Source of the DNA: Coprobacillaceae bacterium
GTDB lineage: Bacteria > Bacillota_I > Bacilli_A > Erysipelotrichales > Coprobacillaceae
Direction: 5' to 3'
Assembly: GCA_963675515.1 (NCBI GenBank)
Contig: OY776328.1
Span: 2,610,001-2,642,000 of the forward strand
Length of the DNA: 32,000 bases
Shown: piece by piece, positions 9,822-29,288 of the stretch
Numbering within the stretch: the stretch's first letter is position 1
Layout: every line of letters begins with the position of its first letter
Made by a program: the position numbers and the translations under genes
The notes under the pieces: generated by a model
What the model was told of the DNA's origin: nothing
Database searches by the model: none
The model's input: only the letters and a program-made list of their open reading frames with translations

Positions 9822-10033
9822 ATAAAAAAAGTCCTTAAAAATTAAGGACGAATTATCGCGGTACCACCTTAGTTAGTGTGCAGGCACACTCGCTTGAAGT
9901 CTTAACGGGACCAGCGGCTCCTCCTACTGAATTTCAAAGGGCTGCTCAAGAGTGATTCATCGCTAGTTTAACCCCTAGTTTTCACCGGCCACTAGGTCTC
10001 TGTTGACGCCACTAACGAACTGTCTCTATCAAA
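9822..10033 (-). promoter_or_regulatory. T-box riboswitch leader, Ile specifier (AUC)
   Basis: The minus strand carries the conserved T-box AAGGTGGTACCGCG (9857-9870). It also has the terminator GTCCTTAA-AAA-TTAAGGAC plus T7 (9824-9849), a stem I start TGATAGAGACAGT, and a distal GGTGAAA. The specifier context GA-AUC-ACUCUUGAGCA has its codon at 9956-9954. Confidence 0.88.
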
Positions 10034-10037
10034 GCAT

Positions 10038-10490
10038 TTAGTTTTTTGTTTTTTCTTCTTCGATGATTGTGAAAAGCTCGGAACCATCAATGGTGTCCAG
10101 GATATCCTGTGACATCTTGACCACCGCCTTGCGAAACGAAGTCGCCTTTTCCTTGAAATCATCCATTTCTCCCGAAAGAGAGCGCACATACTTAAGCGAC
10201 TCGCCTAAAATCAGGTTCGCATTATGCTTGGCTTTGTTTATCAGCGTCGACGCTTCCTTCAAAGCCATCCGGGCAATCTGCTCCTGGGTCTTTTCAAGCA
10301 CATCGACCCGGTTCATCGCCTTTTCAAGCTGCGCATTGACCTGTTCGAGTTCGCTCTGTTTTCTTTGCAGGGAGGTTTCGAGTGTTTCTATCTGGCTTTG
10401 ATAATCGCTGATCTGATCGGTCAAAGATTTGAATTTTTGATTTACTTCGCTTTTGGAATAGCCAAAAAGCGCGCTGCGAAACTCTTTCAT
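10038..10490 (-). CDS. divIVA: DivIVA-domain coiled-coil protein (short)
   Basis: MKEFRSALFGYSKSEVNQKF resembles the DivIVA N-terminal domain (K.F......GY...EV..F) and is followed by a long coiled coil. ATG 10490 has AAGGAAGAG upstream. The track start at 10523 overlaps ylmH, has no SD, and remains an alternative. The position between ylmH and ileS is the canonical one. Confidence 0.75.
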   Translation of the reverse strand: MKEFRSALFGYSKSEVNQKFKSLTDQISDYQSQIETLETSLQRKQSELEQVNAQLEKAMNRVDVLEKTQEQIARMALKEASTLINKAKHNANLILGESLKYVRSLSGEMDDFKEKATSFRKAVVKMSQDILDTIDGSELFTIIEEEKTKN

Positions 10491-10503
10491 CCCACTCTTC
10501 CTT

Positions 10504-11259
10504 TCAGGTATAAAAATATCCATCGATCACAAAATTGTTCGATTTTGTGGTCCGCCCGGTGAAATTCAACCGAACTTTGCCGTGCTTTTTAAAGGATATT
10601 ATATCGTTATTATTGCATAAAAAACTGATTTGTTCAACGGTTTTGTAATTAACTTTGACCATCCCGGATTCGATGGCCTCGACCGCCAGGGCGCGGTTGA
10701 TCTTGAATAGCGTGGCGATTATTTTATCAAGGCGGTAGGACGAGACAAAGAAGACTTCCTTTTTGAATTCGACTGTCGCATCGATGATCTGGTCCACAGG
10801 AGTGATTCTGACATTGAAAATCGCGATCTTCTTGAGGTTGCCGGTCACATATTCAACCTGCCGAGCGTCAACAGCGACAAAGAAGTCGCCATCCAGCTCG
10901 TAAATATCGCCAAAAAGTTCCCGCTTGAGTCCCAGTGACATCAAGGCCCCAAGAACATCCCGATGCTCGAGTTTCCTGAAGCGATCGGGATAGGAAATTT
11001 TTAGCACCTGCACCTGGTAATCATCCTGTTCGAGTTCGTAAAAGCTCGGGGCAATCACCATCCGGGCATACTCTCCACCCGCAAAGCCGCTAGAGGAAGA
11101 TACCTGCAACGAGGGATTTCCACCGACGAGCTGCTTTACGATTTCTATATGATAGGGATCAAGAAACGCTGTCCTGACAATTTTCATTTTGTCCATCGCC
11201 TGATTTTTTAGATCAATTATCTGGGAGATGAACAGCTCCTCGCCTTTGAAATACGCCAA
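10504..11259 (-). CDS. ylmH: YlmH family RNA-binding protein (S4 domain)
   Basis: 251 aa with FLDP...HRDVLGALMSLGLKRELFGDI and a C-terminal S4-like VKVNYKTVE motif, matching B. subtilis YlmH as recalled. It uses a TTG start 3 nt after the preceding stop. Confidence 0.85.
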   Translation of the reverse strand: MAYFKGEELFISQIIDLKNQAMDKMKIVRTAFLDPYHIEIVKQLVGGNPSLQVSSSSGFAGGEYARMVIAPSFYELEQDDYQVQVLKISYPDRFRKLEHRDVLGALMSLGLKRELFGDIYELDGDFFVAVDARQVEYVTGNLKKIAIFNVRITPVDQIIDATVEFKKEVFFVSSYRLDKIIATLFKINRALAVEAIESGMVKVNYKTVEQISFLCNNNDIISFKKHGKVRLNFTGRTTKSNNFVIDGYFYT

Positions 11260-11262
11260 AGG

Positions 11263-11541
11263 CTAAAACCCGCCAACCGTAATCGATCTGGGCGTGCAAA
11301 GATAGGTCTTAACTCCGAGATTGTGGATCTCGCCATCGATGCCGTAGATCACGCCGCTCAAAAAGTGGATCAGGTATGTCGAAGTCTGGTCATCGATCAG
11401 CTCCAGGTTGACGATAACGCTTTGGGCGTTTTTGAGATAGTCGGAGATGACCATCACTTCGTCATAGTTTCTGGGCTGATAGATGATATAGTCGCCATTT
11501 AAAAGAGTAGCGTCACTGCTTCCTGTAATATTAGTTTCCAT
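11263..11541 (-). CDS. SepF-domain protein, core only (no N-terminal membrane helix or linker)
   Basis: 92 aa. YIIYQPRNYDEVMVISDYLKNAQSVIVNLELID...IHFLSGVIYGIDGEIHNLGVKTYLCTP aligns along the SepF/DUF552 core. Own SD AAGGAG. Confidence 0.8.
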   Translation of the reverse strand: METNITGSSDATLLNGDYIIYQPRNYDEVMVISDYLKNAQSVIVNLELIDDQTSTYLIHFLSGVIYGIDGEIHNLGVKTYLCTPRSITVGGF

Positions 11542-11552
11542 AGCTCGCTCCT

Positions 11553-11915
11553 TTAATCTCCACCTAGCTGCCTTGCCACTTCAATATGGGCGGGCGTGCA
11601 CAAATAAATATCAACCCCGACTTCGAACATCTGTCCTTCCAGCACCAACAAGGCTCCCTGGACAAAGGTCAGCGTTTCGCTTTTGGCTTCGGTTGTAAGG
11701 TTGGTGATGTTTACTATTATCGAACGTCGGGCTTTCAGGTAATCGACAAACCTGCGCGTACCATTCGAATCCTCCGGTTTGAAAAAGACAATATCCCCAT
11801 CAACGGCCGCATCTATCTTATCTTCATAAGCCTGATTATCTAAGAGATTTCTTGAATTTGTTTCTTCTTCCTGGTCGTCGCCGCCTAGAAAGAAGTTGAT
11901 AATTGGATTTGCCAT
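11553..11915 (-). CDS. Divergent SepF paralog
   Basis: 120 aa with N-terminal MANPIINFFL, an acidic linker, and the core IVFFKPEDS...YLKARRSIIVNITNL...TFVQGALLVLEGQMFEVGVDIYLCTP. Own SD AGGAG. Confidence 0.75.
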   Translation of the reverse strand: MANPIINFFLGGDDQEEETNSRNLLDNQAYEDKIDAAVDGDIVFFKPEDSNGTRRFVDYLKARRSIIVNITNLTTEAKSETLTFVQGALLVLEGQMFEVGVDIYLCTPAHIEVARQLGGD

Positions 11916-11924
11916 ACTGGACTC

Positions 11925-12359
11925 CTACTCTTCGTCAAGGACGATTTCGCCGGTTACATTCATATTGTTTGGAGTGCAAAGGTAAGTTTTCTCACCCACA
12001 ACCTGGATTGTCCCGTCAATCGCGTAAATCACACCGCTCAAGAAGATGGTGACGCGTTTGGCCTCATCTTTGGAAAGCCGGTGCAGGTTGATAACAGCCG
12101 AACGGCTGTCTTTGAGCAACTTGGCGATAGTCTGGGTTTCATCAAAAGAACGCGGTTCGAACAGGACAAGATGCCCGTCACGGGTCGGATCGATGCTCTG
12201 GATCTTACGCGAATTATTGGTGGATTTAGGTTGTTCGAATTCATTTTGCACTGTTTTTTTCACTTCAACCGGTTCTTTTTTTTCCTCGTATACTCCGCCA
12301 AATTCATCTTCTTCATCTGGCTCGACAAAAAAATCCCGGATGCGATCATTTATTCCCAT
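11925..12359 (-). CDS. sepF: Cell division protein SepF (canonical-looking paralog)
   Basis: 144 aa with an N-terminal amphipathic MGINDRIRDFF (compare B. subtilis MSMKNKLKNFF), a charged linker, and the core LVLFEPRSFDETQTIAKLLKDSRSAVINLHRLSKDEAKRVTIFLSGVIYAIDGTIQVVGEKTYLCTP. SD TAGGAGGAA. Confidence 0.9.
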   Translation of the reverse strand: MGINDRIRDFFVEPDEEDEFGGVYEEKKEPVEVKKTVQNEFEQPKSTNNSRKIQSIDPTRDGHLVLFEPRSFDETQTIAKLLKDSRSAVINLHRLSKDEAKRVTIFLSGVIYAIDGTIQVVGEKTYLCTPNNMNVTGEIVLDEE

Positions 12360-12370
12360 TTTTATTCCTC

Positions 12371-13159
12371 CTACTTGCCGCTTGATGCCTTAACTCCCTC
12401 AATCAAAGCGTTTCTTAAACCGTTTTTCTCCAAGGCGTTTATGCCTTTTATAGTAATCCCCCCAGGCGAACACACCTGATCTTTCAGGATGCCCGGGTGA
12501 AGTTTTGTTTCCTTTTGCATCATCGCCCCGCCAAGAACGGTCTGGCTGACAAGCTCGTATGCCAGATCCCGGGGAACACCCAATTCGACGACACCGTCGC
12601 TTAAGGCCTCGATGATCTGGTAGACATATGCCGGTCCGCATCCCGTCAAAACGCTGGCTCCCTTGTAGACACTTGCAGGCAGAACCTTGACCGTGGCGAC
12701 TTTTGAGAACATGGCAACAATCGCCTCAAGTTCCTCCTGTTCAAGGTTGTTTTCCTGTTCGAAAAGGATCACACCTTGCGACACCTTGACCGGGGTGTTG
12801 GGCATCATTGTCACATGAGCGACTGAATCATCAAGAAGCGCGTGCAGGCGCTCAAAACTGTAACCAAGAACCATCGAAACGATTGTCTTGCCTGTTGTGG
12901 CATCCTTGATCTTTTTGATTACCGATTCAAGCTTGTCGGGTTTTACTCCCATTATGATTATGTCCGCTCCCCTGGCCACGTCCATCTCGCTGGAAGCCTT
13001 TGCCATCCCGTATTTGTCGGCGAAATAACCGACCTGGTTTTCCATGATGTCATAACCTATCGTCCTGGCAGGATCGATGGCGTCTGCTAGGATCAGCCCT
13101 TCAAACAGGGCCGAAGCCATGTTTCCAAGTCCGACAAATCCGATTGTCTTGTCAATCAT
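12371..13159 (-). CDS. proC: Pyrroline-5-carboxylate reductase
   Basis: 262 aa with the N-terminal IGFVGLGNMASAL NADP-binding motif and a C-terminal SPGGITI motif. The start overlaps the ftsZ stop as TAATG. Confidence 0.9.
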   Translation of the reverse strand: MIDKTIGFVGLGNMASALFEGLILADAIDPARTIGYDIMENQVGYFADKYGMAKASSEMDVARGADIIIMGVKPDKLESVIKKIKDATTGKTIVSMVLGYSFERLHALLDDSVAHVTMMPNTPVKVSQGVILFEQENNLEQEELEAIVAMFSKVATVKVLPASVYKGASVLTGCGPAYVYQIIEALSDGVVELGVPRDLAYELVSQTVLGGAMMQKETKLHPGILKDQVCSPGGITIKGINALEKNGLRNALIEGVKASSGK

Positions 13160-14223
13160 TATAAGCGTCTCATTCTGATGAATCCTGGCAGTTCATCTTC
13201 GTCTTCTTCCGGTTTCACGCTGCGCACCGGTTCGATATCGGTTTCGAATTTCACCGTCTTCTTGCTTGCCGGTTCTTCCTTGAACTGTTCGAATCCGGTT
13301 GCGATGACAGTCACGATAACCTCGTCGTCAAGATTTTCATTGATTGCAACACCCAGGTATGTATTGATGTCGTCTCCGACTTCTTCGGTGATCGTCTCCA
13401 AGGCGATATTCGCATCGAAAAGGGAAATATTCGGTCCCCCGGTGATGTTGATTATCGCATCGCGGGCACCTGCAACTGAAACATCAAGCAAAGGCGATGC
13501 GATTGCAGCCTGAGCGGCATCACGGGCCTTGTTATCACCTGAAGCCATCCCGATTCCAATCAGGGCATTTCCTTTGTCTTTCATAACCGAACATACGTCG
13601 GCGAAATCCAGGTTCATGAATGCCGGAATCGCGATAAGGTCAGTGATTGTCTGCACCCCTTGGCGCAGGACATTGTCGGCTTCTCCGAAGGCTTCCGACA
13701 TCGGACGGCCACCGATAAGCTGCAGGAGCCGGTCATTGGCAACGACGATGATCGAATCGACGTTCTTGCGCAACTCCTCGATACCTTCCATTGCCAGCTG
13801 GTTGCGGCGTTTCCCTTCGAACTTGAATGGACGGGTAATGATCCCCACGGTCAAAGCACCCATCTCTTTGGCGATTTTAGCGAACACCGGAGCCGCACCG
13901 GTTCCAGTACCGCCTCCCATTCCTGCAGCGATGAACACCATGTCGGCTCCATCAAGCACTTCGCGGATGTCATTTTCGGATTCCATGGCGGCTTTTTTAC
14001 CGACCTCGGGATTCCCGCCCGCACCAAGACCTTTGGTGATCTTGCCACCTAGAGCGATCTTGTTGTCCACTTTGGAACGTCTTAAAACCTGAACATCGGT
14101 ATTCGCAACAAAGAACTCAACCCCTTGAACCCCGTTTTCAACCATCCGGTTTACGGCGTTGTTACCGCCACCACCGACACCAATAACTTTTATCTTCGCA
14201 ACTTGTTCGTAATTTTCTTCCAT
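13159..14223 (-). CDS. ftsZ: Cell division GTPase FtsZ
   Basis: [17 protein letters not shown] and the tubulin signature [10 protein letters not shown] are present, along with the C-terminal peptide [12 protein letters not shown]. The start is set to ATG 14223 (SD GCGAGGA upstream) rather than the track start at 14250, which overlaps ftsA. Confidence 0.96.
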
Positions 14224-14239
14224 TTTAGTATCCTCGCTT

Positions 14240-15496
14240 TTATTCATCATTAAATAAATTTTCCAGTATTTTGTTCACTCCCCTTTGGGGAATCGGATTC
14301 GACCTAGTCAGTCCCTTCAAGCGGACAGCCATCGTATTGGTTATCTCTTCCATGACCAGCGACGGAGTGTAGCCCCCTTGATATTTCGCTTTGTTGATCA
14401 TAAAATAAATCATCCCCAGACACGAGACATAGGCCATGTCCCTGACTCCGATGGTTTCTGGCCGATATAGGCGCACCGGGGCATTGAGGACTTGACTGGC
14501 CACTTCGGGAATCAGCTTGAGCTCGCTCCCTCCGCCAACCAGAATGATCTCATAGTTGTTGCCCTTGTCGATCAATTCGACTTTCTCCTTGATCTTCGCG
14601 AATACCGCCTTGGCGATTTCCCGATCAAGATGATGGAGATCCGCCAGAGTGTAATCCTTTTTTTCTTCGTCATAAACCACAGTATGGACGATGTCATCTT
14701 TGGAATGGCGGTCGAATATGCTGCCATACTTGATCTTGTACGTCTCACCCTGTTCGGGTGATATCTGAAAATTCTGATAAATGTTCCGGGTAAAATCATT
14801 CCCTCCATAAGGAACCACCGAAAGATACTTGAGATAGCCTTCCTTATAGAAAGAAACCGTCGAGGTTTTGAAACCCACATCTACCAGTATCGCCCCCTCG
14901 TTCATGTAGGCATCGTCGAACGCCTCCAGAGCGCAGGCATAGGCGCTGATGGAAACATCGAGGATTTCAAGCCCCGCATTTTCCACCACCCGCAAAAACG
15001 GGTAAAGCAATTTTTTGGGGCTGGTCACCACCAGGGAGTCGACCGCCAGGTTTCTTGATTTGACATCAAGAGGGACCTTGGAATTGGACCCCTGGTCGTG
15101 ATGGAAGCGTATCGGAATGACCGAGACCAGCTCCTCGTCTGCTTCCTTTTTGAAACGGGCCGATAAATCCAATATCCGCCTTATATCGTTACCAGTGATC
15201 TTGCTGCCCGAATCGGACAGGGATATCGAACTGTCGCTTTGGTAGATTCTTGACCCGATGGTCGGGATGATCAGCGCGATACTTCCGATCGTCGTCCCCA
15301 GGTAATCATTCGCCCTTGCGATTATCTTTTTGACATCTTCACTGGCTATTTCTTCATTTGCCACATAACCTTTACTAATGCCGTGACTTGCGGTCTTGTC
15401 CGCGTATAAAACATTGACATTAGTGTCTAGAACTTCGGCTACAACTAACTTTATTGTTGCGCTACCTATGTCTAATAATGCATAGATATTTCTCAT
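14240..15496 (-). CDS. ftsA: Cell division protein FtsA
   Basis: 418 aa with an actin-like ATPase N-terminus ([16 protein letters not shown]). It lies immediately upstream of ftsZ. Confidence 0.93.
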
Positions 15497-15741: not shown

Positions 15742-17694
15742 CGGACGTTTTACACTTGCACAACCTTATAAACTCGGTAACGCCCTAAGGTAGGCGCTTT
15801 TTTTGTCAAATTTTATCAAATTTATATTCGTACTATTGGGTACTATATGGTATAATATACATGAGGTGATATTCCCATGGCTAAACGCATAAAAATTTCC
15901 AAGTCAAAGAACTCTGAATCATTTTCTGTTATCGATGATTTTACCGATCCTAAAACAAAAAAACGATCGACTTTTGTTGTCGAACGTCTCGGTTCTCTGG
16001 ATTCGCTATTGAAGAAATAAGGAAAACAAAGCTCCAATCCCCATCCAATTTTCCCCGTCTAAGCTGATTCCTCTAGATGAAGAAAGGTTGTTCAATCTTG
16101 GCTATCTCTATCCTAAAAATATTATTTCATCACTTGGAATAAAAGATATCTGTAATAAAATCCAGAATGATCGGAAGTTCAAGTTTGATCTCTATCGGAT
16201 TGTTTGTGATTTGGTTTGCACCCGCATAATATACCCAGGGTCTAAACGTTCCTCTTTCAGGGATGCCCATCACTTTTTTGATGCTCCGCAATATCAGCTG
16301 GAGGATGTGTATCGATCTTTACCAGTTTTAGCGGAAGAACGATATTTTTTTGAAAGTGAATTATACAAGAACAGCACCAATGTCATGGAAAGAAACAACA
16401 GTATTCTCTACTATGATTGCACCAACTTCTATTTTGAAGTTGAGGAAGAAGACGATTATAAAAAATACGGGAAAAGTAAGGAAAACCGGCCAAACCCCAT
16501 TGTTCAATACGGCTTATTTATGGATGCGGATGGGATCCCGATTGCGGACATCACTTTTGAAGGCAATAAGAACGAACAATTTTCCTTAAGAGAGCTAGAG
16601 CAGCAGATTGAAAAAGACTTCGAGTTCAGCAAGTTTATTGTGTGTGCTGATGCCGGACTTAATGGTTGGGAAAACAAGGTCTATAACGATAGAAAAGCTC
16701 ATGGTGCTTATATAGTTACCCAGCCGATAAAAAAATTGAATAAAACTTTGAAGAAATGGGCCACAGACCCCAAAGGATGGAAAATCATTGGTCAGCCGGG
16801 ATTATTCGATATAAGCAAGCTCGATGACACTATAATAATAGATGGCAAAGAACACAATATTAGAGATGTGGTGTTCTACAAGGATAGATGGGTAAAGACA
16901 ACCAAAAAATCAGAACAAACCGAAGACAAATACACCCTGGAAGAACACTTGATTGTTTCGTTCAGCTACAAATTCAAACAATATCAAAGTTATATCCGAG
17001 AAAAGAAATTGGAAAGAGCGCGGAAGCTATTGAAAAATCCCGGGAAAATTAAAACCAGTAATCCACGGGATCCAAAATATTATATCAAGAAGATAGAGGC
17101 AACAGAAAATGGTGAAGTGGCAGATAAGACTTACTATTCAATTGACGAAAGCAAAGTTGAAGAGGATGCCAAATACGACGGATTTTATGCGGTCACAACC
17201 GACTTGACAGATGATAATATGTCCTTAATCATTAGCGCGAATAAGCGCCGTTGGGAGATAGAAGAGAGCTTCGAAATAATGAAGAGCGAACTTAAAACCA
17301 GACCAATCTATGTATCAAGAAAAGATGCAATCAACAGTCACCTGCTTATCTGCTTTATGGCATTACTGGTATACCGTATATTGGAAAAGGAATATTTGAA
17401 AAGCAAATACACATGTAGCGAAATCATAGAGACACTAAGAAAATTAAACGTAACCCATGTAGGTGGAAACAACTACATTCCATCATTCAAACGAACGTTG
17501 GCAATTGATGAATTGGGTGAAGTATTTGGCTTCCAACCATCTAGAGAAATATTGACGCAAAAATATTTAAAAAAATTTACACGAATAGCAAATTCAAGAA
17601 ATAGTACGAAAATGAAATAGCAAAAAAACAGGCAGAAACCCCTTATTTGTAGGGGCTTTTGCCTGTTTCCACGTCTTTAAACTGTAAAACGAGA
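15742..17694 (+). mobile_element. IS1634-family insertion sequence (1,953 bp)
   Basis: Bounded exactly by the 164-bp direct repeats. The imperfect terminal inverted repeats are CGGACGTTTTACAC and, as reverse complement, CTCTCGTTTTACAG. An internal TGGTATAAT extended -10 sits at 15848-15856 with SD GAGGTGA. A 17-bp hairpin at 17626-17668 follows the transposase stop. Confidence 0.85.
15877..17620 (+). pseudogene. IS1634-family (IS4-like DDE) transposase, interrupted by a +1 frameshift near 16012-16020
   Basis: The N-terminal 47 codons (MAKRIKISKSKNSESFSVIDDF...VVERLGSLDSLLKK, stop at 16018) are in frame 1. The rest is open in frame 2 from 16013 (RNKENKAPIPIQFSPSKLIPLDEERLFNLGYLY...) to 17620. 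Together they give about 580 aa, a typical family length. Confidence 0.75.
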
Positions 17695-17775: not shown

Positions 17776-19142
17776 GGTAGTGTCAATATTTTTGTGTAAA
17801 TTTGTAAAATTAGTTCTTACTGATCATCTTGGTTATTCTTCTTCTAGCAGGAACCAACGTTCGTAAGATATTCCTTTGAATCCCTTATGGGTATGGTTCA
17901 TGAATTTTTGGTTATATTGTTCAAATTGCGAAACGATGTATTTCTCCACAGCTTCCTCATTTGGGAATTGTTCTTTAGCCTTGATTTTCCGCTTGAGCTG
18001 TTTATTGAAACCTTCGATCAGGTTTGTTGTATATATGCTCTTGCGTACCGATTCAGGGAACAAATAGAAAGTGAATAGATTTGAATTCTCTTCAAGTGAT
18101 TTTGCCACTTTTGGGTATTTTTGCCCCCATTTGGTGATGAACTCCTTAAGCTCTTCACTCGCCGCTTTTTCAGTTTCGCAATTGTAAACTCGCTTAAAAT
18201 CCTGTGCAATCTCACTACGGTCTTTCACTCTTGCTTTGGCTGTAATGTTTCTTGAAACATGCACCAGGCAACGTTGGATTTTGGCCATCGGAAAAGTGTC
18301 TTCAATGGCGTTCTCAACACCGGTTAGCCCGTCAGTACAGAATAACGCAACCGCTTCCAAACCGCGTGTTTTGAACTCTTCAAACAGTTCCCGCCATGTT
18401 GTTGCGGATTCGGTTGGCGCAATTGAATATCCTAGTATTTCCTTTGTTCCCTCTAGAGTCACTCCTATAGCGATATGAACCGCCTCTTTAGACACGGTAT
18501 CGCGCCGCAAAGGAATAACTGTAGCGTCGGTATAAACAACTGCGTATTGCTTGTTTAACGGGCGATTTTTAAAGGCTTCAACATGGGCAACTATTTCCTT
18601 AGTAATATTGGAAACTGTCTGTCTGGAGTATTTCTTGCCGTAGATTGATTCAACAGTTTTTACAATGTCGCTGTTGGTCATCCCTGAATTAAATAGATCG
18701 ATGACAGTGTTGGTGGTAGCTAGATCGTTTCGCTGATATTTAGGGACCAGCGGTGAATCAAAGTCCCCTTGACGGTCACGTGGTATGCGCAGGTTCAACA
18801 CACCATATTTAGTGTTGTAATCGCGGTTGTAATAGCCATTTCTTGAATTCGAATTCTCAGATCGGTCATATTTCTCATAATCAAGAAAAACGGTAAGTTC
18901 GGACTTCAAAATATCGTTGATGGCATTCTCCAATTCGCTCCGGAAAAGTTCTGAGACTACTTGCTCAAAAGCTGGCAGATTATTATCATTTGATATTAGA
19001 CTTCTAAGTAAAGTTGTTGTAAAATAGTTCATGGGTGTAATCCTCTCGTAAATTGTTTTCGTCGAACTAATTTTACAAGGGTTGCACCCTTTTTTCTACT
19101 TAAAAGTTGAAATCCTATTTACACAAAATATTTTACACTATC
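17776..19142 (-). mobile_element. IS256-family insertion sequence (1,367 bp)
   Basis: The imperfect ~26-bp terminal inverted repeats are GGTAGTGTCAATATTTTTGTGTAAAT and, as reverse complement of the right end, GATAGTGTAAAATATTTTGTGTAAAT (21/26). It is flanked by the 8-bp direct duplication GCCAATGG (17768-17775 and 19143-19150), which occurs once in uninterrupted copy 1 (15650-15657). Confidence 0.92.
17833..19032 (-). CDS. IS256-family (Mutator-like) transposase, intact
   Basis: 399 aa with characteristic blocks NGYYNRDYNTKYG.L.L.IPRDR.G.F, VVYTDAT, FCTDGL, QRCLVH and TTNLIEGFN. Confidence 0.93.
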   Translation of the reverse strand: MNYFTTTLLRSLISNDNNLPAFEQVVSELFRSELENAINDILKSELTVFLDYEKYDRSENSNSRNGYYNRDYNTKYGVLNLRIPRDRQGDFDSPLVPKYQRNDLATTNTVIDLFNSGMTNSDIVKTVESIYGKKYSRQTVSNITKEIVAHVEAFKNRPLNKQYAVVYTDATVIPLRRDTVSKEAVHIAIGVTLEGTKEILGYSIAPTESATTWRELFEEFKTRGLEAVALFCTDGLTGVENAIEDTFPMAKIQRCLVHVSRNITAKARVKDRSEIAQDFKRVYNCETEKAASEELKEFITKWGQKYPKVAKSLEENSNLFTFYLFPESVRKSIYTTNLIEGFNKQLKRKIKAKEQFPNEEAVEKYIVSQFEQYNQKFMNHTHKGFKGISYERWFLLEEE

Positions 19143-19924: not shown

Positions 19925-19939
19925 AAATGAGGATTTTCA
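19909..19939. terminator. Convergent terminator between the riboswitch-controlled gene and divIB
   Basis: Stem AAAATCCTC / GAGGATTTT with loop TGAAAAT. The U-run is better on the minus strand (TTTTTTGC), so it mainly terminates divIB. Confidence 0.55.
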
Positions 19940-20692
19940 TTTGCTTCGATATACGTATCCGCCCAAAAAATCGAAATATTTGTAATCGCTGTAATTCACG
20001 ACCAGAATGATGTAATTGTTGCCGGAAAGCTGGGATGCCATTTCATCGATGCGCAGGTACAATATCTTGCCGTCATCCATATTGAACTGGCAGCGCAAAT
20101 CGTCTCCAGCAGCCGGTCTGAAATATATGTCCGAAACTTCAAGGAGCACCTGGGAGGGGATTTTGGCATATTCGATTGCGAAAGCCGCCAGGGTCTTTTC
20201 ATCAAAATCGTGGATCGCCGGCAATGGTGCGACCAGACTTGAAAATTCCCCTCCAACCTGGCATACCTTGCCGGATTCGTTGATCGCTAAATAACCCTGC
20301 TCATTGGTGCTGTAGGCGATAAGTTTCGTTGGCGTCACTGTGACATTCAACGATCCGTCAAATCCCTTGGCTACCGATACGCTGTCGAAATAGCCGCTGG
20401 CCATCAGGTTTTTTTCAACCTGGCCACTCTGGGTGAAAAGCACGAAACTCTTTGAGACACTGACCTGGGTCAACTCGACTATTTTTTCCTGGGTGATGAA
20501 CTCATTGTTTGCAACCGTGACCTTGTTGATTTTCGAATAGCCTGAGCCAAAGTAAACCGCAGTCAATACAATCAGACTTAACCCAAGCAACCGTCTGACC
20601 ATGCGTTTGCGTCTTTTGGCTTTCTGTTTTTTTGCCAGAAGCAGACTTTGATTCTCATCATATTCGTTGAAGACAACTGTTTTTTTAGCCAT
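19937..20692 (-). CDS. divIB: Cell division protein DivIB/FtsQ (POTRA domain)
   Basis: 251 aa with a basic cytoplasmic N-terminus (KKQKAKRRKRMVRR), a single TM segment, then KINKVTVANNEFITQEKIVELTQV, which is POTRA-like. It sits in the canonical slot after murB. Confidence 0.85.
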   Translation of the reverse strand: MAKKTVVFNEYDENQSLLLAKKQKAKRRKRMVRRLLGLSLIVLTAVYFGSGYSKINKVTVANNEFITQEKIVELTQVSVSKSFVLFTQSGQVEKNLMASGYFDSVSVAKGFDGSLNVTVTPTKLIAYSTNEQGYLAINESGKVCQVGGEFSSLVAPLPAIHDFDEKTLAAFAIEYAKIPSQVLLEVSDIYFRPAAGDDLRCQFNMDDGKILYLRIDEMASQLSGNNYIILVVNYSDYKYFDFLGGYVYRSK

Positions 20693-25975: not shown

Positions 25976-26739
25976 CTTAAGGCCGCGACCATTTCTTTGA
26001 CATATTCATACACATGCTTCGGCGCGTCCGGCCCATGTTTTTCGATGATCTTGACAATTGCCGAACCGACAATCACCCCGTCACAATACTGCGAAAACTC
26101 CCTGACCTGATCAGGCGTGTTGATCCCAAAACCGATGGCAACAGGCGTATTTGTTTCCTGCTTGATCAATTGGACCAGCTCTTCGAGTCCGCCTGCGAAA
26201 CTTGAGCGGGTTCCGGTAACCCCCATTGATGAAACAAGGTAGATGAAGCCTTTCGCCTGTCGGGCGATCATCTTGACCCGGTTCGAAGAAGTCGGCGCCA
26301 CGAAACTTATCAGTTCCAGGTCGTATTTTTCCTTGAACTGGTTCACCTCATCGCTTTCCTCGAATGAAAGGTCAGGCAGGATCAGTCCGTCGATTCCGAC
26401 TTCCTGGCATCTTGCCATGAATTTTTCAACCCCGTAGTGGAAAACGACATTGTAGTAGGTCATGAAACAAAGCGGAATCTGGCTTACCTGACGCACTTTT
26501 TCAACCAGCTCGAACACTTTCGAGGTGTTCACACCCCCGTTGAGCGCCCGGATATTGGCCCCCTGGATTACCGGCCCTTCAGCCACCGGATCGGAAAATG
26601 GAATCCCGATTTCGATCAGGCTGGCCCCGGCTTTTTCCATTTCAAGGATGCACTGATATGTCGTTTCGAGATCCGGATCACCGGCAGTGATGAAGGCGAT
26701 AAAGGCTTTTTTGTTGAAGGCATTCTTCATTCTATTCAT
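25972..26739 (-). CDS. trpA: Tryptophan synthase alpha chain
   Basis: The start is set to ATG 26739 ([32 protein letters not shown]), overlapping the trpB stop. [17 protein letters not shown] motif present. Confidence 0.93.
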
Positions 26740-28501
26740 AGATTTCAACCCCCTTGTAGCGGGCAATTGCCGCCACATCTTTGTCGCCCCGGCCTGAAAG
26801 ACAGCAGATAATTATGTCATCAGGAGAGTATTTTGGCGCATCCTTGATGATCTGGGCCACGGCATGGGCGCTTTCGATGGCGCAGATGATACCCTCGGTT
26901 TTGGCGATGTACTCGAACGCCTCAACCGCCTCGTCATCGGTAATCGGGAGGTAGCTCGCTCTTTTGATGTCATTCAAATGGGCATGCTCCGGTCCGATTC
27001 CCGGATAGTCCAAACCGGCCGAAATCGAATAGACCGGTGCGATCTGTCCGTACTCGTCCTGGCAGAAATATGACTTCATGCCATGGAAAACGCCCAGGCT
27101 TCCGGTGTTGATGGTCGCCGCGGTATAAGGGGTGTCGACCCCTTTTCCGGCCGCTTCACAACCGATCAGTTTGACATCCTTGTCCTCGATGAAATTGTAG
27201 AACATCCCCATCGCGTTCGATCCGCCCCCGACACAGGCATAAACCGCGCTTGGCAGTCTGTTTTCGACTTCAAGAATCTGGGCCCGGGCTTCCTTGGAAA
27301 TGACCGCCTGGAAATCCCTTACCATTGCCGGATAAGGGTGAGGCCCCATGACCGATCCCAACACATAGAACGTGTCTTCGATTCTTCCGGTCCAGACCCG
27401 AAGCGTCTCGTTGACCGCATCTTTGAGTGTCATCGTCCCTGAAGTTACCGGGATGACTTTCGCCCCCAGAAGTTCCATCCGGTATACATTGAGGATCTGG
27501 CGATCCGTATCTTCCTTGCCCATGTAAATTTCACATTCCATATCCAAAAGCGCGGCGGCCGTGGCTGTCGCAACCCCGTGCTGTCCGGCCCCGGTTTCGG
27601 CGATCACCCGGGTTTTCCCCATCTTTTTGGCCAACAGAATCTGACCCAGGACGTTGTTGATCTTGTGAGAGCCGGTGTGATTCAAGTCTTCCCGCTTGAG
27701 ATAGATTTTGGGACCCTTGAGATCCTCGCTCATTTTCTTGGCGTAATACAAAAGCGACGGACGACCCGCATACTCGTCAAGCAATTTTTTAAGTTCCGAG
27801 TTGAACTCGGGATCGTTCTTATAGTGTTCATAAGCCGCGTCGATCTTATGAAGTTCTTCCATCAATGTTTCGGGGATATACTGCCCCCCATGGATTCCAA
27901 ATCTGCCTTTTTTCATCTTAACCCTCCTTACCAGAGTCGCAATTTTGTTTTCATCTTTAATTTTGTGGGTTTCCACCCCGGACGAGACATCGATCCCGTA
28001 ACACCCGATCGCCAAAGCGGCGTCGAGGTTGTCAAGATTGATTCCCCCGGCCAAAAAATACGGTTTTGGGATCTGTTTGATATGCGTCCAATCGAACGTC
28101 TCACCCGATCCCGGTGCCGGGCCGTCGAGAAGATAATAGTCGACATCGAAGTTCAAATCCTGCAGATCGGTGTCTTTTTGCACCTTGATCGCCTTGATCA
28201 AAGGCAGATCCACCTTTTTTCTTAGCTTTGCGATATATTCGTTGTCCTCAGCTCCGTGGAGCTGGATCAGATCGATCACCTTGTTTGTTGCAAGTCTTTC
28301 GATCAGACCGATGTCGCTATTGACAAACACCCCGACTTTTCTTATCCCCGGATTGACCAGGCTTGCAAGCTTTCTGGCAGTGTCAAAATCGACCCGGCGA
28401 GAAGACTTGGCAAACACAAACCCGATGTAATCGGGTTGTTCCCGGTTTATCGCTGCGATGTCCTCTTCCCTGAACAGACCGCAGATTTTAACCCTGGCCA
28501 T
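26732..28501 (-). CDS. trpF-trpB: Bifunctional phosphoribosylanthranilate isomerase / tryptophan synthase beta chain (in-frame TrpF-TrpB)
   Basis: The start is ATG 28501 (MARVKICGL..., the TrpF N-terminus). There is no stop before the TrpB part ([18 protein letters not shown]..., HTGSHKINN with the PLP lysine). An internal SD AAGGAGG (27929-27923) and ATG (27916) are retained at the junction. Confidence 0.9.
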
Positions 28502-29288
28502 CTTTGCCTCTGAGCATGTCGAAGTATTCCTGACGGTCATTGGCTTTGACGATGCTTTCACCGATAAGCACGCCGTTGAAATCATTCTGTTCCAAAACAG
28601 CGATATCTCCCCGGTCGAAGATCCCCGACTCGGAGATGAAAACACCCTTGTAACCGGCTTCCAGCGCCTTCTTTTGGTATTTTAGCGAATTGTTCAGATC
28701 AATCGTGAAATCATCGAGATTGCGGTTGTTGACCCCGATGATCCGGGCCTTGGTCGCCAATGCCTTGTCGAGGTCGTCCTGGTCATGGATTTCAAAAAGG
28801 CAAGACAACCCCAGAGAGTCTGCGATCTTGAAATACCTTTTCAATGTTTCCAGATCAAGAATCCGGCAAATAAGCAGGATGGCATCGGCATTGAGCAATC
28901 TGGCCTGGTAGATCATGTACTCATCGACGATGAAATCCTTGCGCAATATCGGCAGTTCGACCGCGCTTGCAATCGCACTGAGATACTCGTCGGACCCCTT
29001 GAAGTAATCGGGTTCGGTCAGCACCGAAAGGCAGCTCGCCCCGATCTTCTGGTAATCCCTGGCGATGGCCAGGTAATCGAAATCCGGCATGATCAGCCCT
29101 TTCGATGGCGACGCCTTCTTGACTTCGAGGATATAATTGAGGCCCGGTTTTGCCAATGCCTGTTCGAAGCGATAATCATTTGACACCGGAAGCTTTTCGC
29201 ATTCGCTCATCAGCTCTTCAAGTGAAGCTTTTTCCTTTTGATGCGCTATTCTTTTTTTTGTCGCATCCACTAATTTGTCTAATATCAT
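28488..29288 (-). CDS. trpC: Indole-3-glycerol phosphate synthase
   Basis: 266 aa with the [10 protein letters not shown] motif, positioned between trpD and trpF. Confidence 0.93.

Follow-up and report, generated by a model that had tools for sequence, protein, structure and literature searches.

Three tandem sepF paralogs of graded architecture in the dcw/ylm gene cluster of a narrow clade of uncultured Erysipelotrichales

Studies of SepF have treated it as a homopolymer in which the core determines ring curvature and septum thickness, with an N-terminal helix that anchors FtsZ to the membrane. The 32,000 nt stretch of a Coprobacillaceae genome analyzed here (contig OY776328.1, positions 2,610,001 to 2,642,000; hereafter the window) carries three consecutive sepF genes in its division and cell wall (dcw)/ylm cluster, and the encoded proteins range from a canonical SepF to a bare SepF core. 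We propose, at a probability of roughly one half, that the three paralogs are functional, that they go back to old tandem duplications which the resident sepF underwent in the ancestor of a narrow clade, and that they co-assemble as heterodimers or mixed polymers. The first-pass annotation of this DNA had described three minus-strand open reading frames (ORFs) of 144, 120 and 92 aa in succession, and they lie where it placed them:

11925..12359, minus strand: sepF1, 144 aa, ATG start, canonical SepF
11553..11915, minus strand: sepF2, 120 aa, ATG start, divergent SepF
11263..11541, minus strand: sepF3, 92 aa, ATG start, bare SepF core

All three paralogs are true SepF-domain proteins. When the Pfam check that had been suggested for them was run (PF04472, DUF552; 72-position model, gathering score 27 bits), SepF1, SepF2 and SepF3 scored 82.4 (E 2.8e-23), 51.0 (1.8e-13) and 71.9 bits (5.1e-20), far beyond chance, and covered model positions 2-72, 1-72 and 3-72, respectively. 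No NCBIfam model matched the three proteins. A profile of the paralogs searched against the PDB sequences matched SepF structures only. The fold of SepF1, assigned by sequence only, follows from its match to the sequence of the Bacillus subtilis SepF structure 3zih (E=2.4e-20). The AlphaFold2 core models of SepF3 (predicted local distance difference test, pLDDT, ~90) and SepF2 (pLDDT 80-90) were matched by Foldseek to 3zih with template modeling (TM) scores of 0.89-0.90 and 0.90-0.91; the root-mean-square deviation (rmsd) was 0.8-1.2 A for SepF3 and 0.8-1.9 A overall for the two models on B. subtilis SepF, and the next matches were the SepFs of Corynebacterium glutamicum and archaea. The elements of the SepF3 model (E18-21, H26-37, E41-45, H51-67, E71-76, E79-83) follow the beta-alpha-beta-alpha-beta-beta order of SepF, and those of SepF2 are arranged in the same order. 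The strings quoted earlier (MGINDRIRDFF, MANPIINFFL, TFVQGALLVLEG, FLSGVIYAIDG, YLCTP and the FtsZ tail) are all present in the sequence. As a shared core string YLCTP stands, since it occurs in all three proteins, but 'VNL' does not, reading VINL in SepF1, VNITNL in SepF2 and VNLEL in SepF3.

The paralogs differ in what surrounds the core, and alignment, hydrophobic moments and structural models bear out the graded architecture noticed at first: helix, linker and core in SepF1, a hydrophobic helix with a diverged core in SepF2, and a bare core in SepF3. SepF1 aligns with canonical SepF from residue 1 and consists of an amphipathic N-terminal helix (MGINDRIRDFF), an acidic linker of ~50 aa, the core (residues 65-135) and a 7-residue acidic tail; its helix aligns to that of B. 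subtilis SepF, with hydrophobic moments of 0.71 and 0.53, respectively. The SepF2 N-terminus, MANPIINFFLG, is a homologous motif in which both Arg are replaced (mean hydrophobicity 0.55, moment 0.56, net charge 0). Its consensus is M-A/P-NPI-I/V-N/S-FFLG, and nine of the first 11 residues including FFLG are identical among five orthologs. In the AlphaFold2 model of SepF2, residues 4-10 form a helix, an acidic linker of ~30 aa follows at low confidence, and the diverged core comes next. SepF3 opens with ~17 disordered residues (hydrophobic moment 0.20), continues with the core and ends in ...TVGGF straight after the last strand, thus lacking the membrane helix, the linker and the C-terminal alpha3-type tail.

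The triple set is restricted to one narrow clade. The identical order ftsA-ftsZ-proC-sepF1-sepF2-sepF3-ylmH-divIVA(-ileS) is present in the window and in five further sequence-distinct lineages, namely two metagenome-assembled genomes (MAGs), JAQVDW01 'Erysipelotrichaceae' (FtsZ 97%) and OY780959 'Coprobacillaceae' (FtsZ 89%), and three metagenome contigs. The FtsZs of the triple-sepF lineages are 89-97% identical where compared, and the hosts are uncultured, gut-type Erysipelotrichales publicly labeled Erysipelotrichaceae or Coprobacillaceae. When 1.84 billion representative proteins were searched exhaustively with a SepF2 profile (HMMER), one SepF2-type cluster at 50% identity (232 bits) was recovered, followed by generic SepF at 63 bits, and no SepF2-type protein was found outside the clade. 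SepF3-type proteins were found only in contigs that hold the triple set; a scan of Joint Genome Institute (JGI) metagenomes with a SepF3 profile yielded no SepF3 ortholog (best 36% identity) and only ordinary single-copy SepF loci, which served as a negative sample. All 85 other SepF loci fetched encode a single SepF ORF within 4-5 kb on either side. The Firmicutes-wide survey of cell-division genes treated SepF as a single-gene family (PMC8136486), and the full-text literature searched contained no report of tandem SepF sets. The arrangement is thus conserved within a small clade and was not found described in that literature.

We also surveyed synteny around ftsZ, taking one genome per species. 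A sepF gene was located within 8 kb of ftsZ only in the two closest genomes, and in the other Erysipelotrichales of this survey the ylm segment is located away from ftsZ; the survey is therefore blind to their SepFs, and single-copy relatives were taken from contigs of SepF homologs. The next-nearest FtsZ, that of Thomasclavelia spiroformis, is 73% identical; downstream of its gene come proC-spoIIGA-sigE, and the 2.8 kb of sequence available there contain no sepF. Kandleria vitulina and two other Erysipelotrichales lineages carry one sepF directly upstream of ylmH-divIVA-ileS without ylmG. The extra copies had been thought to occupy the ylmG slot, which these single-sepF lineages contradict: since they also lack ylmG, its absence is most simply older than the duplication.

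The surroundings of sepF in relatives differ in other respects. Just upstream of the single sepF, two lineages (L089 2430-4665; L091 2407-4910) carry an uncharacterized gene of 240-250 aa and two sigma-70-type factor genes, which we read as spoIIGA-sigE-sigG, and L091 has a 79-aa PRC-barrel gene nearby. In T. spiroformis (L009 9962-11415), a membrane-protein ORF and one sigma-like ORF, read as spoIIGA-sigE, come after ftsZ-proC. These spoIIGA/sigma-type genes are absent from the sepF locus of the triple-SepF clade. In another lineage, outside the window, the 265-aa protein P0125 has a SepF-type N-terminal helix (MDFLKKFFYKF) and two tandem SepF cores (residues 56-147 and 150-239), and is a fused form of SepF duplication.

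SepF1 shares 62% core identity with single-copy Erysipelotrichales SepF, and the identities between paralogs are 42% (SepF1/SepF3), 32% (SepF1/SepF2) and 31% (SepF2/SepF3); SepF1 is therefore the conserved ortholog, and SepF2 and SepF3 are fast-evolving derivatives. The first-pass annotation had called the duplication not recent, rightly: the YLCTP codons differ among the three copies, and at the DNA level the paralogs retain nothing beyond a 75-nt stretch of 69% similarity between sepF1 and sepF3, marking the duplication as old. A neighbor-joining (NJ) tree built on 76 columns recovers each paralog group as monophyletic (bootstrap 1.0, 0.93 and 1.0). The three proteins have G62, S87 and Y126 in common (B. 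subtilis numbering, used throughout unless marked Cg for C. glutamicum), a combination seen in none of 248 other SepFs. The GC content of the sepF genes, overall and at third codon positions (GC3), matches that of neighboring genes, and no mobile-element genes flank them. These sequence features argue for an origin of SepF2 and SepF3 by duplication within the lineage rather than by acquisition. In the comparison of the window with the JAQVDW-type lineage (L003), the ratio of nonsynonymous to synonymous substitution rates (Ka/Ks) is 0.018 for sepF1, 0.090 for sepF2 and 0.048 for sepF3 (Ks 0.8-1.2), and 0.02-0.11 for ftsZ, proC, ylmH and divIVA. Thus, all three sepF genes are under purifying selection. 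Invariant positions number 65 of 120 in SepF2 (5 orthologs) and 57 of 92 in SepF3 (7 orthologs).

The gene order of the window, ftsA-ftsZ-proC-sepF1-sepF2-sepF3-ylmH-divIVA-ileS, was established from the ORF list and profile matches and confirms the location in the dcw/ylm cluster. The features around the sepF genes are as follows:

14240..15496, minus strand: ftsA, second FtsZ membrane anchor, 11-nt overlap with ftsZ
13159..14250, minus strand: ftsZ, from the ORF and FtsZ relatives; its C-terminal peptide is the expected SepF ligand
12371..13159, minus strand: proC (pyrroline-5-carboxylate reductase), TIGR00112 221.9 bits, Pfam P5CR_dimer, between ftsZ and sepF1
12367..12372, minus strand: Shine-Dalgarno sequence of sepF1, AGGAGG, read from the sequence, overlapping the proC stop codon
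11922..11926, minus strand: Shine-Dalgarno sequence of sepF2, AGGAG, read from the sequence, overlapping the sepF1 stop codon
11548..11553, minus strand: Shine-Dalgarno sequence of sepF3, AAGGAG, read from the sequence, directly 3' of the sepF2 stop codon
10504..11259, minus strand: ylmH (S4-domain RNA-binding protein), Pfam YlmH_RBD, S4 and YlmH_1st, starting 3 nt past sepF3
10038..10523, minus strand: divIVA, Pfam DivIVA 55.1 bits, 20-nt overlap with ylmH, closing the packed run from ftsA
9841-10041, minus strand: T-box leader, Rfam RF00230, 114 bits, between divIVA and ileS, an ordinary ileS regulator

Each sepF gene has its own Shine-Dalgarno sequence 6-7 nt upstream of the ATG, in agreement with the earlier description. 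The intergenic gaps are 11 nt (proC/sepF1), 9 nt (sepF1/sepF2), 11 nt (sepF2/sepF3) and 3 nt (sepF3/ylmH), and the ftsA/ftsZ, ftsZ/proC and ylmH/divIVA pairs overlap. Between ftsA and divIVA, the coding strand is free of strong terminator-like sites; two weak terminator consensus matches in this run are located inside the ftsZ and ylmH coding sequences, and the first clear terminator-like site is a hairpin at 9849-9831 in the ileS T-box leader. As the genes from ftsA to divIVA are packed in one run, they are probably transcribed together with ftsZ.

At selected residues, the three proteins compare as follows:

G109: Gly in SepF1 (6/6), SepF2 (6/6) and SepF3 (7/7), i.e. in 19/19 paralog sequences
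Cg F131 equivalent, aromatic of the FtsZ-tail pocket: Tyr in SepF1, SepF2 and SepF3
Cg K125 equivalent, FtsZ-tail pocket: V in SepF1, E in SepF2, N in SepF3; Gln in 93% of single-copy Erysipelotrichales SepFs
R102: R in 101/101 Erysipelotrichales; R in SepF1, E/D in SepF2, Y in SepF3
D105: D in 100/101 Erysipelotrichales and 128/147 diverse SepFs; I/V in SepF1, T in SepF2, H in SepF3
Y112: aromatic in most SepFs; Y in SepF1, L in SepF2, Y in SepF3
G137: G in SepF1, R in SepF2 (6/6 sequences), G in SepF3

G109 corresponds to Cg G114, the buried Gly of the bacterial alpha-alpha dimer interface, described as 'crucial' (PMC8178401), and the G137N substitution turns the rings of B. subtilis SepF into straight fibrils (PMC13507996). 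None of the paralogs retains the conserved Asp D105, not even SepF1, which is canonical in other respects. In the C-terminal half of alpha2, SepF3 (FLSGVIYGIDG) and SepF1 (FLSGVIYAIDG) differ at one of 11 positions.

The paralogs thus share the domain, the fold, the dimer-interface Gly and the pocket aromatic with canonical SepF (YlmF; B. subtilis O31728, C. glutamicum Cg2363). As at the canonical locus, ftsZ is located upstream and ylmH-divIVA-ileS downstream, and SepF1 retains the full helix-linker-core layout. In contrast to canonical systems, there are three genes instead of one, SepF3 is devoid of helix, linker and tail, SepF2 combines an uncharged N-terminal helix with a remodeled alpha2/beta3 surface, D105 is lacking throughout, ylmD, ylmE and ylmG are absent, and proC follows ftsZ.

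In bacteria, SepF works as an alpha-alpha dimer with two FtsZ tails bound, and the core alone still binds and bundles FtsZ (PMC7118173). Since all three paralogs keep the dimer-interface Gly and the FtsZ-tail-pocket aromatic, we propose that SepF1, SepF2 and SepF3 would co-assemble into heterodimers or mixed polymers. SepF1 would be the conventional FtsZ-to-membrane tether and supply the anchors. SepF3 would represent a natural minimal core, similar to the engineered C. glutamicum SepF from which membrane helix, linker and C-terminal helix were removed, and SepF2 an anchor-bearing variant with a remodeled alpha2/beta3 face and with Arg at residue 137, the site of the G137N substitution that straightens the B. 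subtilis polymers. Both would co-assemble or compete with SepF1, and the mix would set the anchor density, the curvature or stability of the polymers, and the bundling of FtsZ at the septum. The tight operon packing with ftsZ makes a mixed SepF system the most economical reading. The core domain of SepF sets ring diameter and septum thickness (bioRxiv 10.1101/771139), and removal of alpha3 from C. glutamicum SepF uncovers its beta-sheet and leads to linear polymers (PMC7118173). In a more elaborate version, which we offer as a rather improbable one, a single hetero-oligomeric scaffold would have its properties set by the subunit mix: SepF1 would provide charged anchors, SepF3, devoid of anchor and tail, would expose its beta-sheet face and dilute the anchors, and SepF2 (R137, uncharged helix) would alter curvature and septum geometry. 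If true, a machine that forms a homopolymer in all bacteria studied would here have a natural version of several subunits.

Several observations weigh against the proposed duplication and co-assembly. The N-terminal helix of SepF2 contains no basic residues, unlike the characterized SepF membrane helices. In alpha2, SepF2 is identical to SepF1 at only four of the 11 positions 106-116, and the charge of R102 is reversed; SepF2 may have lost pairing with SepF1 or binding to FtsZ. The Cg K125 equivalent is basic in no paralog, nor is it in the single-copy relatives, so this residue carries little weight either way. The NJ tree leaves the branching of SepF2 and SepF3 unsettled and supports a grouping of SepF1+2+3 at only 0.01, and the in-lineage origin therefore rests on the three shared derived residues. 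Only the comparison of the window with L003 is unsaturated for Ka/Ks, those to the more distant MAG being saturated at synonymous sites.

The paralogs could also divide the roles of SepF among them as homodimers, without co-assembly: SepF1 as tether, SepF3 as a soluble, ZapA-like bundler of FtsZ, and SepF2 as an alternative anchor suited to one membrane state or kind of septum. The ability of the C. glutamicum SepF core alone to bind and bundle FtsZ (PMC7118173) is in favor of such a division, as are the strong divergence of the SepF2 alpha2 face from that of SepF1, which favors self-pairing, and the tight conservation of each paralog group by itself. However, alpha2 of SepF3 is nearly identical to that of SepF1, presenting no obvious bar to mixed dimers, and the tight operon packing suggests joint, stoichiometric production. 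We regard separate homomeric roles as possible, if somewhat doubtful.

Another alternative is suggested by Streptomyces, which has SepF together with SflA (SCO1749) and SflB (SCO5967) encoded by dispersed genes, three sepF-like genes being reportedly common in Actinobacteria (bioRxiv 10.1101/2020.12.26.424426). As in that set, one canonical SepF is accompanied here by two shorter paralogs, one of which is devoid of the N-terminal helix (SflB there, SepF3 here), and modulation of the polymer is proposed for both. SepF2 and/or SepF3 might then be antagonists of the SflA/SflB type that bind to SepF1, leave FtsZ unbound, and restrict or take apart the SepF1 polymers. Both Streptomyces paralogs interact with SepF, which alone of the three interacts with FtsZ, and SflB has no N-terminal helix (bioRxiv 10.1101/2020.12.26.424426); SepF2 and SepF3 have both lost K101, R102 and D105 from alpha2, and SepF3 has no anchor. 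On the other hand, the pocket aromatic is kept in SepF2 and SepF3, and the loss of D105 extends to SepF1 and hence is not antagonist-specific. The Sfl genes are dispersed, and most SflA/SflB foci form ahead of division or once it is over, not together with the septum. With gaps of 9-11 nt directly downstream of ftsZ, the sepF genes of the window are more in keeping with simultaneous expression than with opposed expression. We therefore consider antagonism unlikely. No datum presented here separates the favored co-assembly from homomeric roles and Sfl-like antagonism.

The contrast drawn in the first-pass annotation between this locus and the dispersed Streptomyces paralogs holds, as the genes are in tandem within the dcw operon here. 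The hosts also differ: Streptomyces is a filamentous, sporulating actinomycete, and the host here belongs to a unicellular Firmicute lineage that also has FtsA. The origin of SepF2 and SepF3 appears to be independent of that of SflA/SflB, as judged without a direct alignment of the Sfl sequences, because G62, S87 and Y126 are shared with their own SepF1 and SepF2-profile matches above 63 bits occur only in their own clade.

We rejected the acquisition of SepF2 and/or SepF3 by horizontal transfer from another SepF lineage with insertion beside the resident sepF. It would account for the failure of the NJ tree to unite the three paralogs and for the identity of SepF2 and SepF3 to anything else of only 31-42% each, but it is very improbable given the derived G62, S87 and Y126 of all three paralogs (0/248 other SepFs), the SepF2-profile search of 1.84 billion representatives, in which no foreign SepF exceeded 63 bits, the neighbor-like GC/GC3, and flanks free of mobile-element genes. 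Even less credible is a lack of distinct function, with sepF2 and sepF3 being redundant or decaying copies, wrongly called ORFs or artifacts of assembly, despite their small size and the lowest Pfam score of SepF2: artifact or pseudogene status was rejected because intact ORFs with Shine-Dalgarno sequences recur in six independently assembled lineages, the Ka/Ks of the two genes is 0.05-0.09 at near-saturated synonymous sites, more than half of the positions are invariant in both proteins, and the fold predictions are confident.

Two other types of helix-less SepF bear on SepF3. An engineered C. glutamicum SepF reduced to residues 63-137 has lost the helix, the linker and alpha3, yet it still binds the FtsZ C-terminal peptide and forms linear polymers via the uncovered beta-sheet (PMC7118173). 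The boundaries of SepF3, which consists of the core only, approximate those of this construct. Unlike the construct, SepF3 is natural and selectively maintained, and it is 12-14% identical to the C. glutamicum core in a structural alignment. The second type is the SepF of Fusobacteriota (~105 aa; Fusobacterium, Cetobacterium, Ilyobacter), which is likewise natural and without N-terminal helix or linker, so a bare N-terminus is not unique to SepF3. It differs from SepF3 in a conserved acidic C-terminal tail with an I-P-x-F-like end, and a tandem set like the present one is not known for it, its copy number and surroundings lying outside this analysis. Short helix-less SepF-like proteins that were candidates for extra paralogs beside a canonical sepF were rejected, being ordinary Fusobacteriota SepF.

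The tail of the Fusobacteriota proteins (P0187, P0248, P0255 and relatives), ...DEEEEI(I/K)P(I/S)(F/Y), is reminiscent of the IPxF core in the C-terminal peptide of bacterial FtsZ. To our knowledge, this IPxF-like tail of SepF has no previous description.

Other features of the window lie outside the sepF genes. In Firmicutes, ftsZ is usually followed by ylmD and ylmE. Both are absent here, and proC, which overlaps and directly follows ftsZ, is found instead, as in T. spiroformis, where ftsZ and proC are paired in the same way (L009 9131-9910). Two transposase genes, 16088-17620 (plus strand) and 17833-19032 (minus strand; DDE_Tnp_1; Mutator/IS256, 386 bits), are located between ftsQ/divIB (19937-20692) and ftsA in a stretch of low GC (0.36-0.42). 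Because the loci of the sister MAGs are free of this insertion, the dcw cluster was split just upstream of ftsA in this genome. In the trp operon upstream of the dcw genes, a 637-aa ORF (26732-28645, minus strand) joins a phosphoribosylanthranilate (PRA) isomerase (TrpF) domain and a PALP (TrpB-like) domain, and is either a trpF-trpB fusion or the product of an over-extended GTG start overlapping neighboring ORFs.

The triple sepF locus is an independent, tandem and operon-embedded version of a phenomenon known in dispersed form from actinobacteria. Its importance is limited by hosts that are uncultured and confined to a very narrow clade, and SepF paralogs, including a helix-less one, have already been published. 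Within these bounds, one operon keeps a full-length SepF, a form with altered helix and core, and a core-only form, a natural set close to the laboratory series of helix and linker loss, alpha3 loss and G137N. The set offers a test of how SepF assembly depends on anchor density, on the alpha3 cap and on the G137 region, and of whether mixed SepF polymers exist. Given an origin that appears independent of Sfl, it also bears on the repeated evolution of SepF paralogs into regulators.

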